Source of the DNA: Gemmatimonadales bacterium
GTDB lineage: Bacteria; Gemmatimonadota; Gemmatimonadetes; Gemmatimonadales; GWC2-71-9
NCBI GenBank assembly: GCA_035519565.1
Contig: DATIWD010000025.1
Coordinates: 7,061-71,060 of the forward strand
DNA: 64,000 nt
Direction of reading: 5' to 3'
This document shows, piece after piece, positions 14,871 through 32,497 of this stretch. The position numbers and the translations under genes are program-made. The notes under the pieces are model-generated. The model saw only the letters and a program-made list of their open reading frames with translations, made no database searches and was not told where the DNA came from. Each line of letters opens with the position of its first letter. The stretch's first letter is position 1.

Positions 14871-14888
14871 TTACTGCGGGTCGCGGGT

Positions 14889-14924
14889 CTCAAGTCACAA
14901 ATCTCAAGTCACAAGTCACGACAG
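14889..14924. repeat. short tandem heptamer-type repeat (AAGTCAC units)
   Basis: The sequence ctcaagtcacaaatctcaagtcacaagtcacgaca lies directly after the hydrolase stop. Confidence 0.6.
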
Positions 14925-15085: not shown

Positions 15086-15159
<74 letters not shown>

Positions 15160-15167
15160 TGAGGGGC

Positions 15168-15213
15168 AGGACTGAGGGATGAGGACTGAGGCTCAGTCCT
15201 GAGTCCTGAGTTC
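15168..15213. repeat. inverted heptamer arrays forming a palindrome (AGGACTG units / CTGAGTC units)
   Basis: aggactg-agggatg-aggactg-agg | ctcagtc-ctgagtc-ctgagtt. The core aggactgagGctcagtcct is a 19-nt palindrome sitting 9 nt upstream of the tRNA-Ile 5' end. Confidence 0.7.
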
Positions 15214-15272
15214 CGTGTCCGCCCCTACCGCCTTTACCGCCCTGCCCGCCTTGTCCGCCCCCGACCGCCCGA
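15212..15272. repeat. 9-nt periodic array R1 (C-rich on + strand)
   Basis: tccgtgtcc gcccctacc gcctttacc gccctgccc gccttgtcc gcccccgacc. It lies between the acidic ORF and the tRNA. Confidence 0.6.
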
Positions 15273-15306: not shown

Positions 15307-15579
15307 CTACCGCCGCTTGCGGCGCGGCTCGTCGCCCTCCAGCTCCTCGATGTCCTCGTCCCAACCCTCCTCGTCCTCCTCCTTGTCCTCCTCGTCCAAG
15401 TCCTCGTCCTCGTTCTCGTCGAGGTCGTCCTCGTCCTCTTCGTCGAACGTGAAGCCCTCATCGTCCTCGTCGAAGTCATCATCATCCCGCCGCCGACGCA
15501 TTTCGATGGCTTCCCGCGACGCTTCCCACGCCGACATGATCTCCTCCGGCTCGAGTAAAGGTGAACGGTGGAAACGCAT
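15307..15579 (-). CDS. small poly-acidic protein (90 aa) with basic C-terminal tail
   Basis: The ATG at 15579 is preceded by AAGGGAGG, about 10 nt upstream and overlapping the typA stop. Sequence: MRFHRSPLLEPEEIMSAWEASREAIEMRRRR + a 53-aa segment with 39 D/E + PRRKRR. GC3-rich codons. No family recognised. Confidence 0.5.
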   Translation of the reverse strand: MRFHRSPLLEPEEIMSAWEASREAIEMRRRRDDDDFDEDDEGFTFDEEDEDDLDENEDEDLDEEDKEEDEEGWDEDIEELEGDEPRRKRR

Positions 15580-15595
15580 GGTCGCGCGACCTCCC

Positions 15596-17458
15596 TTACG
15601 ACGCACCCGCGGCCCGAGCCGCCGCCCGTGCCGCCTTCTTCCGATCAGACGCCGCCAGCGCCCGCTTGCGAAGCCGGATCGTCTTGGGCGTCACCTCGAT
15701 CAGCTCATCCTCTTCGATGTACTCCAGCGCATACTCCAGGGTGATCTCCCGAGGCGGCTCCAGCTGCACGTTCTCGTCCGATCCGCTGGCCCGCATGTTG
15801 GTCAGCTTCTTCTCCTTGGTGACGTTCACGTCCATGTCCCCGGGCCGGGAGTTCTCCCCGGCGATCATCCCCTCGTAGACCAGCTCCCCGGGGGCCACGA
15901 ACATCTGGGCCCGCTCCTGCAGGTTCCCCAGCGCATAGGCCACCACCACACCCTGCCGGTCCGCCACCAGCACCCCCCGCTTCCGACCCGCCAGCGGTCC
16001 CGCCCAGGGACCGTAGTCGAGGAACCGGTGATGCATCACCCCAGTGCCCCGGGTGTCGGTCAGGAACTCGGAACGGTAGCCGAAGAGACCGCGGGCCGGG
16101 ATCCGGAACGACATACGGACCATCCCCTGCCCCGGGTTCTTCATCTCCATCAGCTCGCTCCGCCGAGGACCCAGCTTCTCGATCACGGTGCCCAGGTGCT
16201 CCTCCGGCACGTCGATCATCAGCTCCTCGTAGGGCTCGAGCCGCTCGCCACCGGGACCCACCCGGGTGATCACCCGCGGGCGGGAGACCTGGAACTCGTA
16301 CCCCTCGCGCCGCATGGTCTCCATCAGGATCCCCAGGTGCAGCTCGCCGCGACCCGAGACCGACCAGGTGTCGGGGCTCTCGGTGTCCTCGACTCGAAGG
16401 GCCACATTCCGTTCCAGCTCGTTGTACAACCGGTCCCGCACCTGGCGGCTGGTGACGAACCGGCCTTCCCGTCCCGAGAAGGGGCTGTTGTTGACCATGA
16501 AATCCACCGAGATGGTCGGCTCTTCGACCGCGATCCCGGCCAGCCGCTCGGGCACCGCCGCGGCGGTGATGGTCTTCCCGATCTCGATCCCCTCGAGACC
16601 CGAGAGGACGATGATCTCGCCGGCTTCCGCACGCTCCAGCTCGACCCGGTTGAGCCCCTCGAAGCAGTAGAGCTTGGTGATCTTGCTCCGCTCGATCGCC
16701 TCGTCGGTCACCAGCCCGGGCTCCCCCAGAGGCAGCAGCGCCACCTCGTCTCCCACCTCGACTCGGCCCCGCTCGATCCGCCCGATCGCCATTCGTCCCA
16801 CATAACTCGAGTAGTCGAGCGTTGAGACCAGCATCTGGAACGGACCTTGGGGGTCCCCCTTGGGCGGCGGGACGTGGTCCAGGATGGCCTGGAATAAGGG
16901 CTTGAGGTCGGTCCCCGGGTGTTCCAACTCCGCAGTGGCAGTCCCGGCCCGGCTCGACGTATAAAGGAATGGGGCGTCCAGCTGCTCGTGGGAGGCCTCG
17001 AGATCGATAAAGAGGCCCAGCACTTCATCATGGACCCGGAGGGGCTCGGCGTCGGACCGGTCGATCTTGTTGATCGCCACGATGGGGCGTAGCCCCAAAC
17101 TCAGGGCCTTCCGGGTCACGAACCGGGTCTGCGGCATCGGCCCTTCCGCCGCGTCCACCAGGATCAGGACCCCATCCACCATGCGCAGGATCCGCTCGAC
17201 CTCACCGCCGAAGTCGGCGTGGCCCGGCGTGTCCACGATGTTGATCTTGACCCCGCCCCAGCGAACCGAGGTGTTCTTGGCCAGGATAGTGATCCCCCGC
17301 TCCCGCTCGAGCGGATTGGAATCCATCACCCGTTCCTCGACCTGCTGGTTGGCCCGGAACGCGCCCGCCTGACGCAGCATCTGATCCACCAGGGTGGTCT
17401 TCCCGTGGTCGACGTGCGCGATGATCGCGATGTTCCGGATGGCTTCCTGGCTCTTCAT
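15596..17458 (-). CDS. typA: translational GTPase TypA/BipA
   Basis: Track ORF 15596..17521 trimmed to [25 protein letters not shown] (ATG at 17458). G motifs ([20 protein letters not shown]) and a BipA-type C-terminal region. Confidence 0.92.
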
Positions 17459-17474
17459 CTGCGTCCCCAAACCT

Positions 17475-18092
17475 TCACTCTCTGGGGGCGAACACGCTCT
17501 CACCCCCCTCTCGCGCGGCATATATAGGCGAGTGGGTGGGAACCGGCAAGTGGGACAAGACGGACAAGACGGACAGGGTGGACAGGTGAACGAAGGACAG
17601 GAGGGACAGGACGGGCAAGACGGACAGGTGGCCTAGCCCACGTCCCCAGAACAACACCAGCCTGAGCGTCTTGACGGATCCCCTCCGGTCCTGCGTGAGC
17701 ACCTTGTTTGACCTTCCGTCTTGTCGGTCTTTGCCGCCCTGCCCGTCTCTCAATGACCGATACAGCAGCCACGTTAGCCTCCCGGCATTGGCGCGCAGGG
17801 ACTCCAGCCGCCCGTATTCCAGCGAATCCACCATCCTGAGATCGCGGGCGAGTTCGAGGGCGGAAGACAATTCGGACGACCCATTGCTGATGTCCAGATA
17901 CCGCCTGAATTCCGCCCGCCCCGGCTTCGCGGGGCCTTCCGCGATACGAGCCGAGGCAGAGTACGCAGCCTTCCGTACCTGCGCTGCCAACCCGTAACGC
18001 TCGGTCCGGGGCCAGTAGTTGGTGGCCTTGTACACCTCGACCGCCAACTCGTGGCAGGCTTTCCAGGCGAGCAGCTTCTGATACGGCATCAT
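17475..18092 (-). CDS. four-helix-bundle protein (23S rRNA intervening-sequence protein / Avd family) with repeat-encoded C-terminal extension
   Basis: The first 118 or so aa (MMPYQKLLAWKACHELAVEVYKATNYWPRTERYGLAAQVRKAAYSASARIAEG..EFRRYLDISNGSSELSSALELARDL) match the family pattern as I remember it. The last 85 or so aa (GKDRQDGRS...LSVLPVLSLLSFVHLSTLSVLSVLS) are read straight through the 9-nt repeat arrays. The stop lies 17 nt before the typA ATG. Confidence 0.7.
   Translation of the reverse strand: MMPYQKLLAWKACHELAVEVYKATNYWPRTERYGLAAQVRKAAYSASARIAEGPAKPGRAEFRRYLDISNGSSELSSALELARDLRMVDSLEYGRLESLRANAGRLTWLLYRSLRDGQGGKDRQDGRSNKVLTQDRRGSVKTLRLVLFWGRGLGHLSVLPVLSLLSFVHLSTLSVLSVLSHLPVPTHSPIYAAREGGESVFAPRE
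17553..17630. repeat. 9-nt periodic array R2 (G-rich on + strand)
   Basis: ggacaagac ggacaagac ggacagggt ggacaggtg [aacgaa] ggacaggag ggacaggac gggcaagac ggacaggtg. That is 4 + 4 units separated by 6 nt. Confidence 0.8.
17711..17750. repeat. 9-nt periodic array R3 (C-rich on + strand, inverted relative to R2)
   Basis: accttcc gtcttgtcg gtctttgcc gccctgccc gtctct. It lies about 80 nt from R2 in the opposite orientation. Confidence 0.65.
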
Positions 18093-18185
18093 GCAGGGAA
18101 GATCAACCGGATGCCCACTGAACCATCATCGGCCTAATGCAGATTGGTACGGAATTGCGCCAAGGGAATAACCGCTAGGAGGGCT

Positions 18186-18257
18186 CTCTTGTCCAACCTG
18201 TCCGTCTTGTCCGCCCTCTCCGTCCTGTCCGTCTTGCCCGCCCTGTCCGTCTTGACC
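18186..18257. repeat. 9-nt periodic array R4 (C-rich on + strand), 8 units
   Basis: ctcttgtcc aacctgtcc gtcttgtcc gccctctcc gtcctgtcc gtcttgccc gccctgtcc gtcttgacc. It lies between the four-helix-bundle gene start and the CDF gene stop. Confidence 0.85.
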
Positions 18258-18262
18258 AACTC

Positions 18263-19294
18263 CTAATGGTGGTGTCCTAACCCAAGGTGAACATGGTCAT
18301 GCCTGTCCGTCTTGTCCGTCTTGCCCTCCCCGACCGCCGCGTCCTCCTCGCACGGCCCCCCGGTCTCCAACTGTATGGTCACATGCCCGATCCCCAGTCG
18401 AGCCAGCGCGGCACGGATCTCCTGTAGGACGCCCGGGTGGGCGTCGAGGTTGGGAACCACGGCATGCCCGCTCATCGCGACAATACCGCTGGTCACGGTC
18501 CAGACGTGGAGATCGTGGACCGCGGAGACGCCCGGGACTTCCATCATCAGTCGCTGGACTTCGGACATGGACACGTGCGCCGGGGCGGCCTCGAGCAGGA
18601 TATCGGTGCTCTCCCGCAGCAACCGCCAGGCGCCGACCAGAATCAGGAGGGCGATGCCAATCGAGATGATCGGGTCTGCCGGCGTCCATCCAGTGAACAG
18701 GATCACCAACGCCGCCACGATTGCCCCGGCCGAGCCCAGGACATCGCCCAGGATGTGGAGGTAGGCGGCGCGCGTGTTGAGGCTCCTCTTGTGATGGTCT
18801 CGGAGCAGGAAAAGGCTGCCCAGGTTCACCAGCAGGCCCGCAGTGGCCACCGCGAGAAAGAGTCCGGTCTTGATCGTGGGCGGCTGTCCCAAGCGCTCAA
18901 CCGCTTCAAAGACCACCCACCCCGCGATGCCGAACAGGCTGGCCCCGTTCACCAAGGCTGCGAGGATCTCCCACCGCAGGTACCCGTAGGTCTTCGAGGG
19001 ATCGGCCGGCCGTTGCGCGATCCAGGCAGTAAGCAGCGTGAGCCCCAGCGCCCCCACGTCGGTGAGCATGTGGCCGGCATCGGCTAGCAGGGCCAGCGAC
19101 CCGCTCACCAGTCCACCCACCACCTCGATGACCATGAACCCGGCGGTGAGCAGCAGCACGAAGCGCAGCCGTTTCAGCGCTCCCGACCGACTGAAGGACG
19201 CCTCCGAGGTCGAGGGTCCCGCGTGCGCCGCGACTGCGCGGCAGGGGTCCAGCTCGGCTGCCTCACCGGCGCGACCCGGGTTGCCGGCCGTCAT
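18263..19294 (-). CDS. cation diffusion facilitator family transporter (CzcD/ZitB-like)
   Basis: 343 aa with six TM helices. Motifs SLALLADAGHMLTD and AYLHILGD, a cytoplasmic C-terminal domain (HDLHVWTV) and a His-rich tail. The residues GEGKTDKTDRH near the C-terminus are encoded by repeat array R5. Confidence 0.85.
   Translation of the reverse strand: MTAGNPGRAGEAAELDPCRAVAAHAGPSTSEASFSRSGALKRLRFVLLLTAGFMVIEVVGGLVSGSLALLADAGHMLTDVGALGLTLLTAWIAQRPADPSKTYGYLRWEILAALVNGASLFGIAGWVVFEAVERLGQPPTIKTGLFLAVATAGLLVNLGSLFLLRDHHKRSLNTRAAYLHILGDVLGSAGAIVAALVILFTGWTPADPIISIGIALLILVGAWRLLRESTDILLEAAPAHVSMSEVQRLMMEVPGVSAVHDLHVWTVTSGIVAMSGHAVVPNLDAHPGVLQEIRAALARLGIGHVTIQLETGGPCEEDAAVGEGKTDKTDRHDHVHLGLGHHH
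18300..18335. repeat. 9-nt periodic array R5 (C-rich on + strand) inside the CDF gene 3' end
   Basis: tgcctgtcc gtcttgtcc gtcttgccc tccccgacc. Confidence 0.7.
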
Positions 19295-30400: not shown

Positions 30401-30719
30401 GCGTCTCGACCCGCTCCCCCGCGATCTCGAGGTGGGGCTCCTCTTCCCCGAGCGATTCCCGCTGCGGATAGAGCGCCACCGCCAAGTCCGTCAACTGAGC
30501 CAGATCGCCCAGCCACCGCTCGGCGTCGGCTGGCGTCGGCGCCACCACGGTGAAGACCCGCTGCGGGAAATGTTTCGCGAGACCGCTCAGCAGGACGGCG
30601 GGGCTGGAGCCGGGGAGACCGGCGACTCGAAGCACGGTGCCGCGCGGAGGAAGGCGCTCGGCGATCGCGCGCGCAGCCGGCGTCCGCTCGAACGCGTCGA
30701 CGATGAAGGAGACGCTCAT
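27411..30719 (-). CDS. mfd: transcription-repair coupling factor Mfd
   Basis: 1102 aa. CarD-like RNAP-interacting domain (GDFVVHLEHGIGIY), DEAD/DEAH helicase motifs (GDVGYGKTE, VVDEEHRFG, TATPIPRT) and a TRCF C-terminal domain. Confidence 0.93.
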   Translation of the reverse strand: MSVSFIVDAFERTPAARAIAERLPPRGTVLRVAGLPGSSPAVLLSGLAKHFPQRVFTVVAPTPADAERWLGDLAQLTDLAVALYPQRESLGEEEPHLEIAGERVETLDALLHGRIRLLVTTVRATMERTQLPAVLSRARLRLAAVASGQRGAGPTLSEAVAQLGAMGYQRVPTVTEVAEFSVRGGIVDIYGFGMAFPARCEWWGDQLTSVRAFDLTSQRSLTPLDEVTVLPIRSQPQEPEEMQAERRTLLEVLPPETLLIQESPGPGREEVARAWQEAAHHLEVARRLGEITPTREELFEEPEGWLQRIAGFASLVLGEEPADLHAGLSPPERVDRDLPRLRTLLAGGQPTVILCDNEGQLERLDELLNEGPRGPTGAQLVVGSLDGGFVLPSLRVLTDHEIFRRARRLRRPRRYRQAAPSAATGVLALGDFVVHLEHGIGIYRGIQTITVGEAKLEVAVLEYEGGDLLNVPLYRLDQLERYRAAEDGSDRPPPRLHRLGGTSWQRVRDRTRGAIKDMAAELLDLYARRKVASGFAFPPDTKWQRELESSFLYEDTPDQRRATEEVKRDLEAPRPMDRLLVGDVGYGKTEIAVRAAFKAVQAGKQVAVLVPTTILADQHGRTFSERLVDFPVRIEVLSRFRTPREQKALLARLAAGEVDIVIGTHRLLSPDARFKDLGLLVVDEEHRFGVKHKERLRALRLSVHVLTLTATPIPRTLHMSLAGLRDLTIIETPPRDRSPILTFVEPWDDGLLEEALARELDRGGQTFFVHNRIETINTIAERVRALAPRARVGVVHGQMPAEPLEEVMRQFVAGEVDVLVSTMIVESGLDVANANTMVVHDAHRFGLAQLYQLRGRVGRSHRRAYCYLLVPDLIDREAEERLKVLEHHTDLGAGYRIALKDLELRGAGDLLGAEQSGHAQAVGFDLYLRWLDETVRALKGQGEGEQPAPPEVVLDQPAHLPDDYVSEDDVKLDLYRRLARTTTPGDIEQLRDEMRERFGPLPAEAENLLHLSRLRILGARIGVQHLLVHGEEARLSFRAGAVPRLAGLKVALDEVQLAAEVRRTVPLALRLTRLGGEPMTPALVRALRAAVGPEPVLAPASQ

Positions 30720-32497
30720 GCCCGCGAGCCTCGCCCGCTCGCGACCAGCAGCTCGACCAGCCCCAGGGTCAGGGCCAGCCAGAGCAGCGGCCCAGTCAGA
30801 TCCGCCCGGGCGCTCCCAAAGAACCCGGCAGTGGCTGCTTCGGTGGTGGAGACGATCCGGGTTCCCGGCCAGAGCCCGCGGATCTGGGAATCGGTGGCAC
30901 GCGTCAGCTCGGATTCACGGGGATCCGGATTCACCGAGAGGGCGCCCAGCGTGTCCCGGCCGGCGAGAAAGTAGTAGATCCCCGGTTCAGGAGGCCGGAA
31001 GCGGGCACCGCCTTCGACCGGCCACGTGCGATTGCCGGCGCGCACTTCCGTGGCCAGGTCCGGAACCGGCGCCGGATCGCCGGGCGCGGTTTCGACCGTA
31101 GCGACCTCGCCACGAGCCATTCGATTGACCAGCGCGTCGAGTAGTGGAATGAAGGCGGCCGAGACCGGGAGCGAGGTCCACTCCGGATCCAGCCGGCTGC
31201 CGATCAAGACCACGCGTCCGCTCCGTACGATCCAGGGCGCGCCACCCGCTGTCGCCAGCACCCCCGTACGGGCGTTCCCCACCGGTTCCAGTCCATAGCG
31301 ACGGAGCACCCGTTCGCGGCCCACCAGTTCCCCGCTGTCACTGGCCACCGCCTCCAGACTGAGGCGGCCGTAGCGCCAGGCGACTCCCCGTTCTCCCAGA
31401 CGGCGGTTGAGCACCTCGATGCCGGCGGGATCCTTGGGCGGCTCCACCACCGAGGCGTTGGGCCCCAGGAATCCGAGGGCGACCTCGCTCCCTCGACGGA
31501 AGCGACCGCCCGCCTGCAACACCTCGGCCGCTGCCAGCAGGTAGGGCTCGTCGGATGGCCACGCCACTCCGGCTACCGGCAGCACCCGAACCGCCGTCAC
31601 CCGCCGATCATCGGCCCGAACCTCGTCGGGATCCAGCTCAGCGGCGACCGGCCACCAGCCAGCTGGAACCGTCGGAGAGGAGATGCCGAGTGGAACTCCG
31701 GCACTCGCCAGCCCGCGGCGAGCCGGGCGATCGCCCACCCGAAGAGTCAGAGGAGCCGTTGCCTGGGCTGGGCCGGATACCAGGATTCGCACGGCTCCGC
31801 CATCAGTGGTCCACGGTTGATGACCCGGATCGATGCTGGTCACGCCCCAATTGGCAGGCGGGGAGCCGGAGGGGCGAACGGCCAGGACGGACAGGGCGGA
31901 CAAGGCGGGCAGGGCGGACAAGGCGGTCAACTGAAAATCCGAAACTACTACGATCTGGCCGGAGCCTCTGAGTACATCCTCTGCAGTCCGGAGGGCCTCG
32001 CCGAGGTCCATGCGGAGACTGAGAGGGGAGAGGCCCGCGACCGATTGACGCAGCGCCTCCGGCGAGCCGCGCCGAGGAATTCCATCCGCGGTGAGCAACC
32101 AGAGCGTGTCGGCCGGCGTCGCCTCGCTCAGGACTCGGCCAGCGGCCTCACGCAGCTGAGTCAGCACCGGGACGCCATCCACCACGGCTCCGCTGCTCAG
32201 GCTGTTGTCCACCACCAGGACCAGCGCGCCGGGAACATGCCCCGCCCCGAGCCGGGTATCCACATGCGGGCCTGAAGCCCCCAGCACCAGGGCCAGCACC
32301 AGCAGGGTGCGAAGAATCAGCAGGAGATAGTTCTGGACCTTGAGCCGGCGTTCGTGACGGCGGGCCGTCTCCATCAGGTACCGCACCGCTGGAAACTCGA
32401 GGGCGGGAGGCTCACGGCGGGCCAGCAGGTGGAGCAGCAGGGGAAGCCCGGCAGCCGCCAATCCGAGCAGCACCCAGGGATGCAGAAACCCGATCAC
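30716..32497 (-). CDS. BatA-like membrane protein (aerotolerance-regulator N-terminal domain)
   Basis: 593 aa. The N-terminus MIGFLHPWVLLGLAAAGLPLLLHLLARR matches the BatA_N signature. A C-terminal TM is present. It contains the in-frame 9-nt array R6, encoding LTALSALPALSALSVLAV. Confidence 0.7.
   Translation of the reverse strand: MIGFLHPWVLLGLAAAGLPLLLHLLARREPPALEFPAVRYLMETARRHERRLKVQNYLLLILRTLLVLALVLGASGPHVDTRLGAGHVPGALVLVVDNSLSSGAVVDGVPVLTQLREAAGRVLSEATPADTLWLLTADGIPRRGSPEALRQSVAGLSPLSLRMDLGEALRTAEDVLRGSGQIVVVSDFQLTALSALPALSALSVLAVRPSGSPPANWGVTSIDPGHQPWTTDGGAVRILVSGPAQATAPLTLRVGDRPARRGLASAGVPLGISSPTVPAGWWPVAAELDPDEVRADDRRVTAVRVLPVAGVAWPSDEPYLLAAAEVLQAGGRFRRGSEVALGFLGPNASVVEPPKDPAGIEVLNRRLGERGVAWRYGRLSLEAVASDSGELVGRERVLRRYGLEPVGNARTGVLATAGGAPWIVRSGRVVLIGSRLDPEWTSLPVSAAFIPLLDALVNRMARGEVATVETAPGDPAPVPDLATEVRAGNRTWPVEGGARFRPPEPGIYYFLAGRDTLGALSVNPDPRESELTRATDSQIRGLWPGTRIVSTTEAATAGFFGSARADLTGPLLWLALTLGLVELLVASGRGSRA
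31880..31933. repeat. 9-nt periodic array R6 (G-rich on + strand) inside the BatA-like CDS
   Basis: ggccaggac ggacagggc ggacaaggc gggcagggc ggacaaggc ggtcaactg. Confidence 0.8.

Follow-up and report, generated by a model that had tools for sequence, protein, structure and literature searches.

Intervening sequences (IVSs) that interrupt 23S ribosomal RNA (rRNA) genes and carry an open reading frame (ORF) of the S23p/PF05635 family have been known since the early 1990s. They are found in Leptospira, Coxiella, Brucella and Azospirillum. Elements of this type are inserted at helices 9, 25 or 45 of 23S rRNA and are excised by RNase III without religation. To our knowledge, the origin and mobility of IVSs and the function of the S23p protein are unexplained, and the short tandem repeats with units of 7 to 9 nt that have been catalogued in several phyla likewise lack an assigned function. 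Here we describe a PF05635 gene bracketed by tandem arrays of a 9-nt repeat between czcD and typA in 64,000 nt of DNA from a Gemmatimonadales bacterium (contig DATIWD010000025.1, positions 7,061 to 71,060; hereafter the window). In our estimation there is about an even chance that this cassette is a free-standing IVS-type element, in which a module composed of a leader and a gene resides in the loop of a long hairpin formed by the arrays. Sequence relationships among such cassettes suggest that the puzzles of the IVS protein and of the short tandem repeats are linked.

The Coxiella IVS possesses a terminal stem of 28 bp in which RNase III cuts have been mapped, and two or three strain-variable tandem GACAGAT heptamers lie just upstream of its ORF, at the RNase III-cut 5ʹ arm (PMC4990558). 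PF05635 genes wedged within cas operons have been noted earlier (PMC3936711), and G-rich heptamer repeats that often occur as convergent pairs have been described in Xanthomonas and Nostoc without a link being made to the PF05635 gene (PMC4692102). Our literature search found no paper linking this gene family with flanking repeat arrays.

The czcD-typA cassette and its encoded protein

The cassette, czcD and typA all reside on the window's minus strand, and the window has a G+C content of 67.6%. Their features are listed below, broadly in the order in which they are read on the gene strand, with coordinates referring to the window. Related loci carry labels such as L001, of which L001 to L080 denote the 80 best homologue loci.

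18263..19294, minus strand: czcD (cation efflux; PF01545, PF16916), the upstream boundary gene
18300..18326, minus strand: fourth array, two to three 9-nt units within the 3ʹ end of czcD, in frame as GKTDKTDR
18186..18257, minus strand: 5ʹ arm, eight tandem 9-nt units (GGACARGRC), G-rich on the gene strand, pairing with 17553-17630 in the minimum free energy (MFE) and centroid structures
18093..18185, minus strand: leader of about 93 nt from the 5ʹ arm to the ATG, within the loop
18092..17475, minus strand: whole ORF including its tail, 205 amino acids (aa)
17739..18092, minus strand: four-helix-bundle coding region (PF05635/TIGR02436, S23p/Avd-like), 118 codons, identified by hidden Markov models, matches to 2GSC and an AlphaFold2 model
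17711..17750, minus strand: second G-rich array (mini-array) of about four degenerate units, kept in orthologues L001, L087 and L088
17475..17738, minus strand: read-through ORF extension, 85 codons plus stop, non-conserved and probably non-functional
17631..17710, minus strand: spacer of about 80 nt that separates the mini-array from the 3ʹ arm
17553..17630, minus strand: 3ʹ arm, 8.6 units of GYCYTGTCC that are C-rich in gene sense and complement the 5ʹ arm (75-88% complementarity in inverted repeats I1-I8)
17521..17549, minus strand: putative typA promoter, TTGCCG-N17-TATATA, conserved, directly outside the 3ʹ arm and marking the downstream boundary of the insert
15596..17458, minus strand: typA/bipA (GTP_EFTU, BipA_C), the downstream boundary gene

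The 5ʹ arm begins 5 nt past the czcD stop codon, and the mini-array is joined in frame to the end of the protein domain, at the point where other family members have their stop codon. A sequence-only reading of this DNA had already placed a four-helix-bundle gene and three arrays here. The gene scores above the cut-offs of both PF05635 and TIGR02436, and the arrays at 18186-18257, 17711-17750 and 17553-17630 are confirmed; the fourth array, inside czcD, was absent from that earlier list. In L001, the C-terminal tail of czcD carries five in-frame units (2778-2824) just before its His-rich end, and cassette-less relatives such as L091 are without units in this tail.

The two arms complement each other, and their pairing is the dominant feature of the predicted transcript fold. 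Minus-strand RNA corresponding to 17460-18270 (811 nt) has an MFE of -380.4 kcal/mol, compared with -343.5 +/- 10.7 for shuffled sequences (z = -3.5), and the outer arrays are paired with each other in both the MFE and the centroid structures. The interaction energy between the arms is -87 kcal/mol, versus -36.5 +/- 6.4 when the 3ʹ arm is shuffled, and about 56 pairs between the outer arms are expected in the Boltzmann ensemble. Two structures had been offered by the sequence-only reading. The long stem that encloses the gene holds up, whereas a local hairpin between the mini-array and the 3ʹ arm is thermodynamically negligible, with approximately zero expected pairs in the ensemble.

Residues 6-100 of the encoded protein align to PF05635 (E = 2.5e-22; 79.6 bits, cut-off 33.8), and the protein also matches TIGR02436 (70.6 bits, cut-off 24). 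A single-sequence phmmer search reaches 2GSC (E = 9e-15), and a profile search retrieves both 2GSC (E = 3e-37) and 2RLD (E = 5e-12), which are the structures of the pentameric four-helix-bundle protein XCC0516 and of BT_0352, respectively. An AlphaFold2 (AF2) structure prediction run with database proteins produced a model with a predicted local distance difference test score (pLDDT) of 85 and four helices (3-24, 35-52, 59-84 and 90-117). Foldseek superimposes this model on XCC0516 (2GSC) with template modelling (TM) scores of 0.84-0.88 and on BT_0352 with a score of approximately 0.8. These matches and the predicted fold show that the protein truly belongs to the 23S-IVS/Avd fold family, as had been proposed.

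The core motif of the family, G..Q.RRA..S...NIAEG ... GS.SE, is mostly present in the window copy. Its deviations are an R at the near-invariant N49, a K at R41 and the loss of the Leu of GSLSE, a departure shared by the clade to which the window copy belongs. The ratio of nonsynonymous to synonymous substitution rates (dN/dS) is 0.11-0.13 in comparisons with L001 and L088, at a dS of about 0.6, and the coding region is thus under purifying selection. In view of this ratio, we did not adopt a reading of the window copy as a pseudogene on the basis of its lost stop codon, its deleted Leu and a frameshift in L087. The frameshift in L087, a near-identical strain of the window's species, results from a 2-nt deletion affecting helix 4, and might reflect either true polymorphism or a mistake in the assembly.

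Most of the 80 homologues stop 116-126 aa after their start codon. This usual stop codon has been lost from the window copy (205 aa) and from orthologues L001 and L088 (154 aa), and the ORFs consequently run into the mini-array. Both orthologues then terminate at a TAG just before the C-rich arm, whereas a 1-nt indel ahead of this TAG causes the window ORF to read on through the arm. The tail is not conserved among orthologues and is therefore best treated as an artefact. The extent of the 85-codon read-through given earlier is correct, but its tail rich in L, S and V is not a conserved feature. Arrays of this kind can artificially lengthen annotated ORFs, as in the 205-aa call here, and can pass for CRISPR-like repeats.

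An Rfam scan of the whole window at gathering thresholds returned only tRNA-Ile, with no rRNA, as the sequence-only reading had stated, and no known RNA family in the cassette. No terminator-like site, defined as a short GC-rich hairpin followed by a U tract, is present within 17300-18500. A consensus promoter scan did not call the putative typA promoter (8/12 matches); loci with the cassette (the window, L001, L087 and L088) and loci without it (L089, L090, L091, L093 and L116) alike retain this promoter.

The unit GGACARGRC occurs 13 times in the window, versus 3.7 +/- 1.9 times in shuffled sequences, and a two-unit pattern occurs 25 times, versus 1.5 +/- 1.2. Although 17 of these 25 matches fall in 17553-18326, repeats of the same class are also found at 15219-15269, adjoining tRNA-Ile, and at 31879-31926, inside a 593-aa ORF. 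The repeat is therefore a feature of the genome, though strongly concentrated at the cassette, and an exclusive association with this gene does not hold.

Several further repeats were noted in the window. The 593-aa ORF (30716-32497, minus strand) contains five 9-nt units, GGACARGGC, at 31879-31926, whose in-frame reading is LSALPALSALSVL. Because a 9-nt period preserves the reading frame, arrays can expand within genes. The tRNA-Ile(GAT) gene (15086-15159, minus strand) is surrounded by a hairpin of 7-nt units, AGGACTG/CAGTCCT (15159-15211), by the GGCGGNNNN array at 15219-15269, and by 4.7 copies of GTCACAA (14887-14919). Downstream of typA, a 99-aa, D/E-rich and extremely acidic ORF (15307-15606) has no Pfam match; short tandem repeats (TCCTCG and the like) abound in its coding region as well.

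Covariation between the arms of a cassette

The 80 best homologue loci and the syntenic contigs derive from metagenome-assembled genomes (MAGs) of Gemmatimonadales/Gemmatimonadota, with the exception of one labelled Acidimicrobiia. Arrays around the homologues were detected with Tandem Repeats Finder (TRF). An upstream G-rich array and a downstream C-rich array are both present at 58 of the 80 loci, and are mostly composed of 8-9-nt units. The upstream array ends 40-120 nt ahead of the ATG and has a period of 8 nt in 37 loci and 9 nt in 17, and the downstream array begins 0-70 nt past the stop codon. Unit lengths of 8, 9, 10 and 14 nt are found and are locus-specific, with arrays typically carrying 3-15 units. 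The units themselves vary widely (GGCGGTAA, GGTCGGAA, GACGGGAAG, GGAACGTGA and others), such that 53 pairs with matching periods yield 43 distinct consensus units, and cassettes within one MAG (e.g. L006, L023 and L036) carry different units. A subclade in which TRF detects no arrays still has inverted arms of 54-111 nt, in which the repeat is longer and composite (GGCGGTC plus an A-rich spacer).

Although the repeat unit changes between copies, the arms within a copy covary: in 42 of the 53 cognate pairs (79%), reverse-complementing the upstream unit gives the downstream unit with at most one mismatch, compared with 13.8% of non-cognate combinations. Likewise, the median alignment score between flanks is 52 for cognate and 20 for non-cognate arms, and cognate constructs fold 28 kcal/mol better than chimeras (63/72, p = 1.6e-9). 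Chimeras served as the controls for folding, given that isolated GC-rich segments always pair their own ends. An RNAduplex comparison of upstream with downstream flanks was significant (p = 1e-11) but poorly discriminating, because every arm pair is G-rich versus C-rich, and the alignment, unit-level and chimera-fold tests were used for this reason. The IVS-like architecture recognized by the sequence-only reading, a gene enclosed by a stem, is therefore kept in most of the 80 loci, with covarying units.

When mismatches between arms are read on the sense strand, G:U combinations outnumber A:C combinations (83 versus 47), an excess that is compatible with an RNA stem. Duplex energies show no difference between sense and antisense strands (34/71). 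In 46 of 50 cassettes and 13 of 15 solo hairpins, the G-rich arm precedes the C-rich one, but this polarity is the same on both strands and so cannot indicate a function in the sense of the gene.

Approximately 430 kb of flanking sequence contains only about five other inverted array pairs that enclose a gene. Two of the enclosed genes are further PF05635 copies (L022 and L019), and one is pseudopilin-like (L009). The latter resides in a type II secretion cluster, with inverted 8-nt arrays CGGTCGGA / GTCCGACC around the gene (L009, 747-1236), so bracketing of this kind is not confined strictly to PF05635 genes. About 15 array pairs are gene-less hairpins with loops of less than 100 nt. The arrays belong to a repeat class that is spread across the genome and also forms hairpins without genes. 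In five orthologous loci, one such solo hairpin overlaps a conserved gene at its start and signal-peptide region, with a different unit in each genome (L051, 825-905; L064, 828-920; L066, 19-103; L073, 5438-5528; L078, 5404-5485).

A word-indexed protein search yielded Gemmatimonadales relatives only, and other phyla were reached by tblastn searches of plasmids. In the cultured Gemmatirosa kalamazoonensis (L081), GGAGGGCA arrays flank the gene on both sides; in strain KBS708 this cassette occupies approximately 1,007,560-1,008,000 of plasmid 1. Inverted arrays of 7-nt units abut the gene in 9 of 14 cyanobacterial plasmid loci (AGGAGTC/GACTCCT, GGGTGTA/TACACCC, AAGGGAA/TTCCCTT and AGGAGAT/ATCTCCT), and one of these cassettes sits between cmr2 and cmr3. 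Among the remaining cyanobacterial loci, three of the 14 have a 3ʹ array only, next to an insertion sequence (IS) transposase, one has direct arrays, and one has none. The copy with direct arrays (L175) lies between cas6 and cas4, with (TAAAAGC)9 upstream and (CAAAAGC)9 downstream. Finally, Azospirillum lipoferum (L084) carries a genuine IVS in helix 45 of its 23S rRNA gene, and its arms, TCAGAGGACGGATGACAGAGGACGGAGGACAGA and TCCGTCCTCTGTCTTCTGTCATCCGTCTTCTGA, consist of short tandem purine-rich units upstream and their pyrimidine-rich complement downstream, which lends further support to the IVS-like architecture.

These distributions bear on whether the cassette is a coincidence, in which a generic simple-sequence repeat, possibly one that forms quadruplexes or substitutes for a terminator, happens to lie beside an unrelated small gene. 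Arrays do occur elsewhere, both at the two other window sites given above and at 218 places in 485 kb of related sequence, and G-rich heptamers, often in convergent pairs, exist in Xanthomonas and Nostoc without a link to the gene (PMC4692102). However, both arrays accompany 58 of the 80 homologues, most of the others have non-tandem inverted arms, and the few additional gene-enclosing pairs in the flanking sequence include two PF05635 copies. With the association also holding in cyanobacteria and in a real IVS, we regard coincidence as highly improbable.

Another arrangement would make the arrays binding sites for the encoded protein, with a pentameric Avd-like ring contacting 4-10 units of its own RNA or of single-stranded DNA for the purpose of autoregulation, protection or packaging. 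Locus-specific units would then reflect co-evolution of protein and repeat. Consistent with this proposal are the structural kinship of the protein to XCC0516 pentamers and to Avd, which holds the RNA of a diversity-generating retroelement (DGR) in the 8UB7 ribonucleoprotein (RNP), the typical array size, the different units of the paralogous cassettes within one genome (L006, L023 and L036), and the association of gene and arrays across phyla. However, direct evidence of nucleic-acid binding by PF05635 proteins is known only from DGRs, solo hairpins persist without the gene, and similar arrays bracket the pseudopilin gene and occur inside coding regions. Moreover, covariation between protein and unit is inseparable from shared descent with present data. 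We consider the binding-site proposal quite unlikely.

Site states, orientation and a proposed mode of action

The order hisD-czcD-[cassette]-typA is kept in L001, L087 and L088. Strains differ by a single 9-nt unit (L087 has one more in its 3ʹ arm), and species differ by several. Other states of the site, bounded by the czcD stop codon and the conserved typA promoter, were obtained from typA-anchored metagenome loci. The site is empty in L091 and L117, and only 15 nt separate the czcD stop codon from the -35 box in L091. Two loci carry gene-less hairpins, composed in L089 of GGACGGTG x 8.8, a 50-nt loop and CCTTCCGT x 4.6, and in L090 of GACGGGAAA x 3.9, an 87-nt loop and TTCCCATCC x 3.6. Unrelated inserts occupy the site in L116 (about 400 nt; 414-900) and L094 (two other genes; 1811-2580), and the gap between the czcD stop codon and the typA promoter looks like an insertion hot spot. 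The full, solo-hairpin and empty states agree with the suggestion of the sequence-only reading that the cassette is possibly mobile and that relatives might reveal an empty site. No homology was seen by eye between the loops of the L089 and L090 hairpins and the leader or spacer of the cassette, and gain of the gene is therefore not distinguishable from its loss.

At a second orthologous site, between convergent genes here called Y and X, the cassette is flipped in three of 12 genomes (L030, L073 and L078) relative to the other nine (L005, L016, L025, L051, L052, L064, L066, L070 and L074). L070 and L078, which are close relatives by protein sequence, have opposite orientations, and this pattern suggests repeated flipping at the Y/X site. 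Inversion of the loop is the expected product of recombination between the arms.

Such changes raise the prospect that the cassette acts at the DNA level, as a mobile or recombinogenic element whose module inserts into existing array hairpins or whose arms function as terminal inverted repeats. Template switching between the arms, or gene conversion, would then keep them complementary, and pairing in RNA would be incidental. In addition to the three states and the unrelated inserts of the czcD-typA site, the inverted loops at the Y/X site and the variation in unit number among strains, this explanation could account for the gene in the window clade abutting a G array on both sides, as if inserted within an array, and for the integrases, transposases and cas genes that adjoin cyanobacterial plasmid copies (PMC3936711). 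However, no recombinase or transposase travels with the gene, and the arms differ between copies (43 units in 53 loci), so that no recognition sequence is shared. A loop of approximately 500 nt makes cruciform extrusion in duplex DNA unlikely, any long inverted repeat would be expected to cause inversions and indels as a side effect, and the orthologues have stayed at the czcD-typA site over a dS of about 0.6. An element acting at the DNA level is possible but doubtful.

Expression of the gene might begin within the loop. Leaders in the family measure about 65 nt, and in 34 of 72 loci a -10-like box, [TA]ANNNT, precedes the ATG by 5-8 nt, compared with 5.9 in shuffled sequences. The box spans -12 to -7 before the ATG, and TTGA motifs are found near -34 and -45. 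A consensus scan identified no canonical sigma-70 promoter in the leader of the window copy, and a strict -35/-10 pattern is present in only one of 72 loci. These leader sequences suggest that in many copies, about half, transcription starts inside the loop and yields a leaderless mRNA for the protein. In the window copy the -10 match is only weak (GATCTT), and expression may depend on read-through from czcD.

If the cassette is a free-standing IVS-type element, then any transcript crossing it, from either side, would read the G-rich arm first and the C-rich arm last, since the polarity of the arm pair is identical on either strand. This transcript would fold into an imperfect double-stranded RNA stem of 60-100 bp, which, by analogy with rRNA-borne IVSs, might be cut by RNase III or might otherwise end the RNA. 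Processing of the stem could insulate the host genes, such that czcD would gain a defined 3ʹ end and typA would use its own promoter outside the 3ʹ arm. The protein, a predicted pentameric Avd-like ring, would be expressed from inside the loop, and the hairpin loop would offer the gene a safe residence, as in helices 25 and 45 of 23S rRNA. Insulation would fit both the location of 25 of 48 cassettes between convergent gene ends and the position of the typA promoter just outside the arm.

Several observations weigh against this interpretation. Transcription and cleavage of the stem in free-standing copies are inferred from rRNA-borne relatives, and an mRNA initiated at the -10-like box of 34 of the 72 loci would lack the 5ʹ arm, leaving only read-through RNA to form the stem. 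Crude gene calls place only eight of the 48 cassettes co-directionally with both neighbours, as in the window, with the 25 between convergent genes and 10 antisense to both. The excess of G:U mismatches could reflect a transcription-linked C-to-T bias rather than selection, and fairly good pairing is also seen between non-cognate arms, given that these are always G-rich versus C-rich with related cores. In addition, the window copy is atypical in its layout, with its extra G array and lost stop codon, and the copy on Pseudanabaena galeata plasmid pPg_01 (L175) has direct rather than inverted arrays.

Comparison with known systems

Across Gemmatimonadales and cyanobacteria, the free-standing majority of PF05635 genes share the stem-plus-loop design of IVSs. 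This finding connects the IVS protein family and Avd-like proteins with the dispersed short tandem repeats of several phyla. Moreover, the system is amenable to experiment, as it offers a cultured carrier in Gemmatirosa kalamazoonensis, natural full, solo and empty alleles at one site, and natural inversions at another. A more speculative proposal, which we hold to be rather improbable, is that PF05635 genes and their arms form a self-contained RNP element. The ring would recognize the units of its own arms, and the module would colonize hairpin loops, giving rise to IVSs in rRNA helices and to cassettes in intergenic repeat hairpins. Dispersed short-tandem-repeat hairpins of Gemmatimonadales, of cyanobacteria (the short tandemly repeated repetitive sequences, or STRRs) and perhaps of Xanthomonas would then be footprints or landing pads. 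If true, this would establish a widespread class of mobile element that lacks a transposase, and would provide a common function for the long-unexplained IVS protein and the STRR repeats.

The arrays resemble STRR heptamers and the GGGAATC and GGGGAYT repeats of Xanthomonas and Nostoc (Rehm et al. 2015, PMC4692102) in being tandem G-rich units of 7-9 nt that are mostly intergenic, vary in copy number and frequently occur as convergent pairs able to form stem-loops. However, window-type units are 8-9 nt long and locus-specific rather than conforming to one genome-wide consensus, and the pair encloses a gene. Units are 9 nt in the window and 7 nt in the cyanobacterial cassettes, but the kind of repeat is the same, though not necessarily the repeat family.

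Repetitive extragenic palindromic (REP) sequences, bacterial interspersed mosaic elements (BIMEs) and MITEs (miniature inverted-repeat transposable elements) are likewise intergenic, hairpin-forming, dispersed and polymorphic for presence or absence. The cassettes differ from these elements in that no terminal sequence is common to the copies, the arms are tandem arrays and the loop contains a conserved gene. No REP-associated tyrosine transposase (RAYT) or other transposase was seen associated with the cassettes, and none is linked in the Gemmatimonadales loci. A MITE or IS-like element was rejected as an explanation given the 43 arm units among 53 cassettes, the differences between copies within one genome and the absence of a linked transposase in Gemmatimonadales.

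The predicted four-helix-bundle fold is also that of the DGR protein Avd, with Foldseek TM scores of 0.77-0.81 to 4DWL and 8UB7 at 11-14% identity, whereas sequence searches reach XCC0516 and BT_0352 but not Avd. A DGR was rejected, since neither neighbour (czcD or typA, with hisD also nearby) is a reverse transcriptase and no template repeat/variable repeat (TR/VR) pair was found. The window contains no TR/VR-like direct repeat of at least 45 nt; more distant reverse transcriptase domains in the window were not scanned systematically.

The closest correspondence is with the large, ORF-bearing class of 23S rRNA IVSs, in which terminal inverted repeats likewise form a stem whose loop holds an ORF of the PF05635 family. 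The Azospirillum (L084) and Coxiella IVSs also share short purine-rich tandem units upstream and their complement downstream, and the unit cores are similar (GGACAG / GACAGA). The differences are that the window cassette lies between czcD and typA, outside any rRNA gene, that its arms comprise approximately 70-80 nt of 9-nt units, compared with the 28-bp stem of Coxiella, and that a leader of about 90 nt separates the arm from the ATG. Furthermore, purifying selection acts on the window protein, in contrast to the decaying ORF of Coxiella, and RNase III excision, shown for the rRNA-borne relatives, is predicted by analogy for the window cassette. Because it does not reside in rRNA, the window element is not an IVS, though it is built like one and, by analogy, plausibly works like one.

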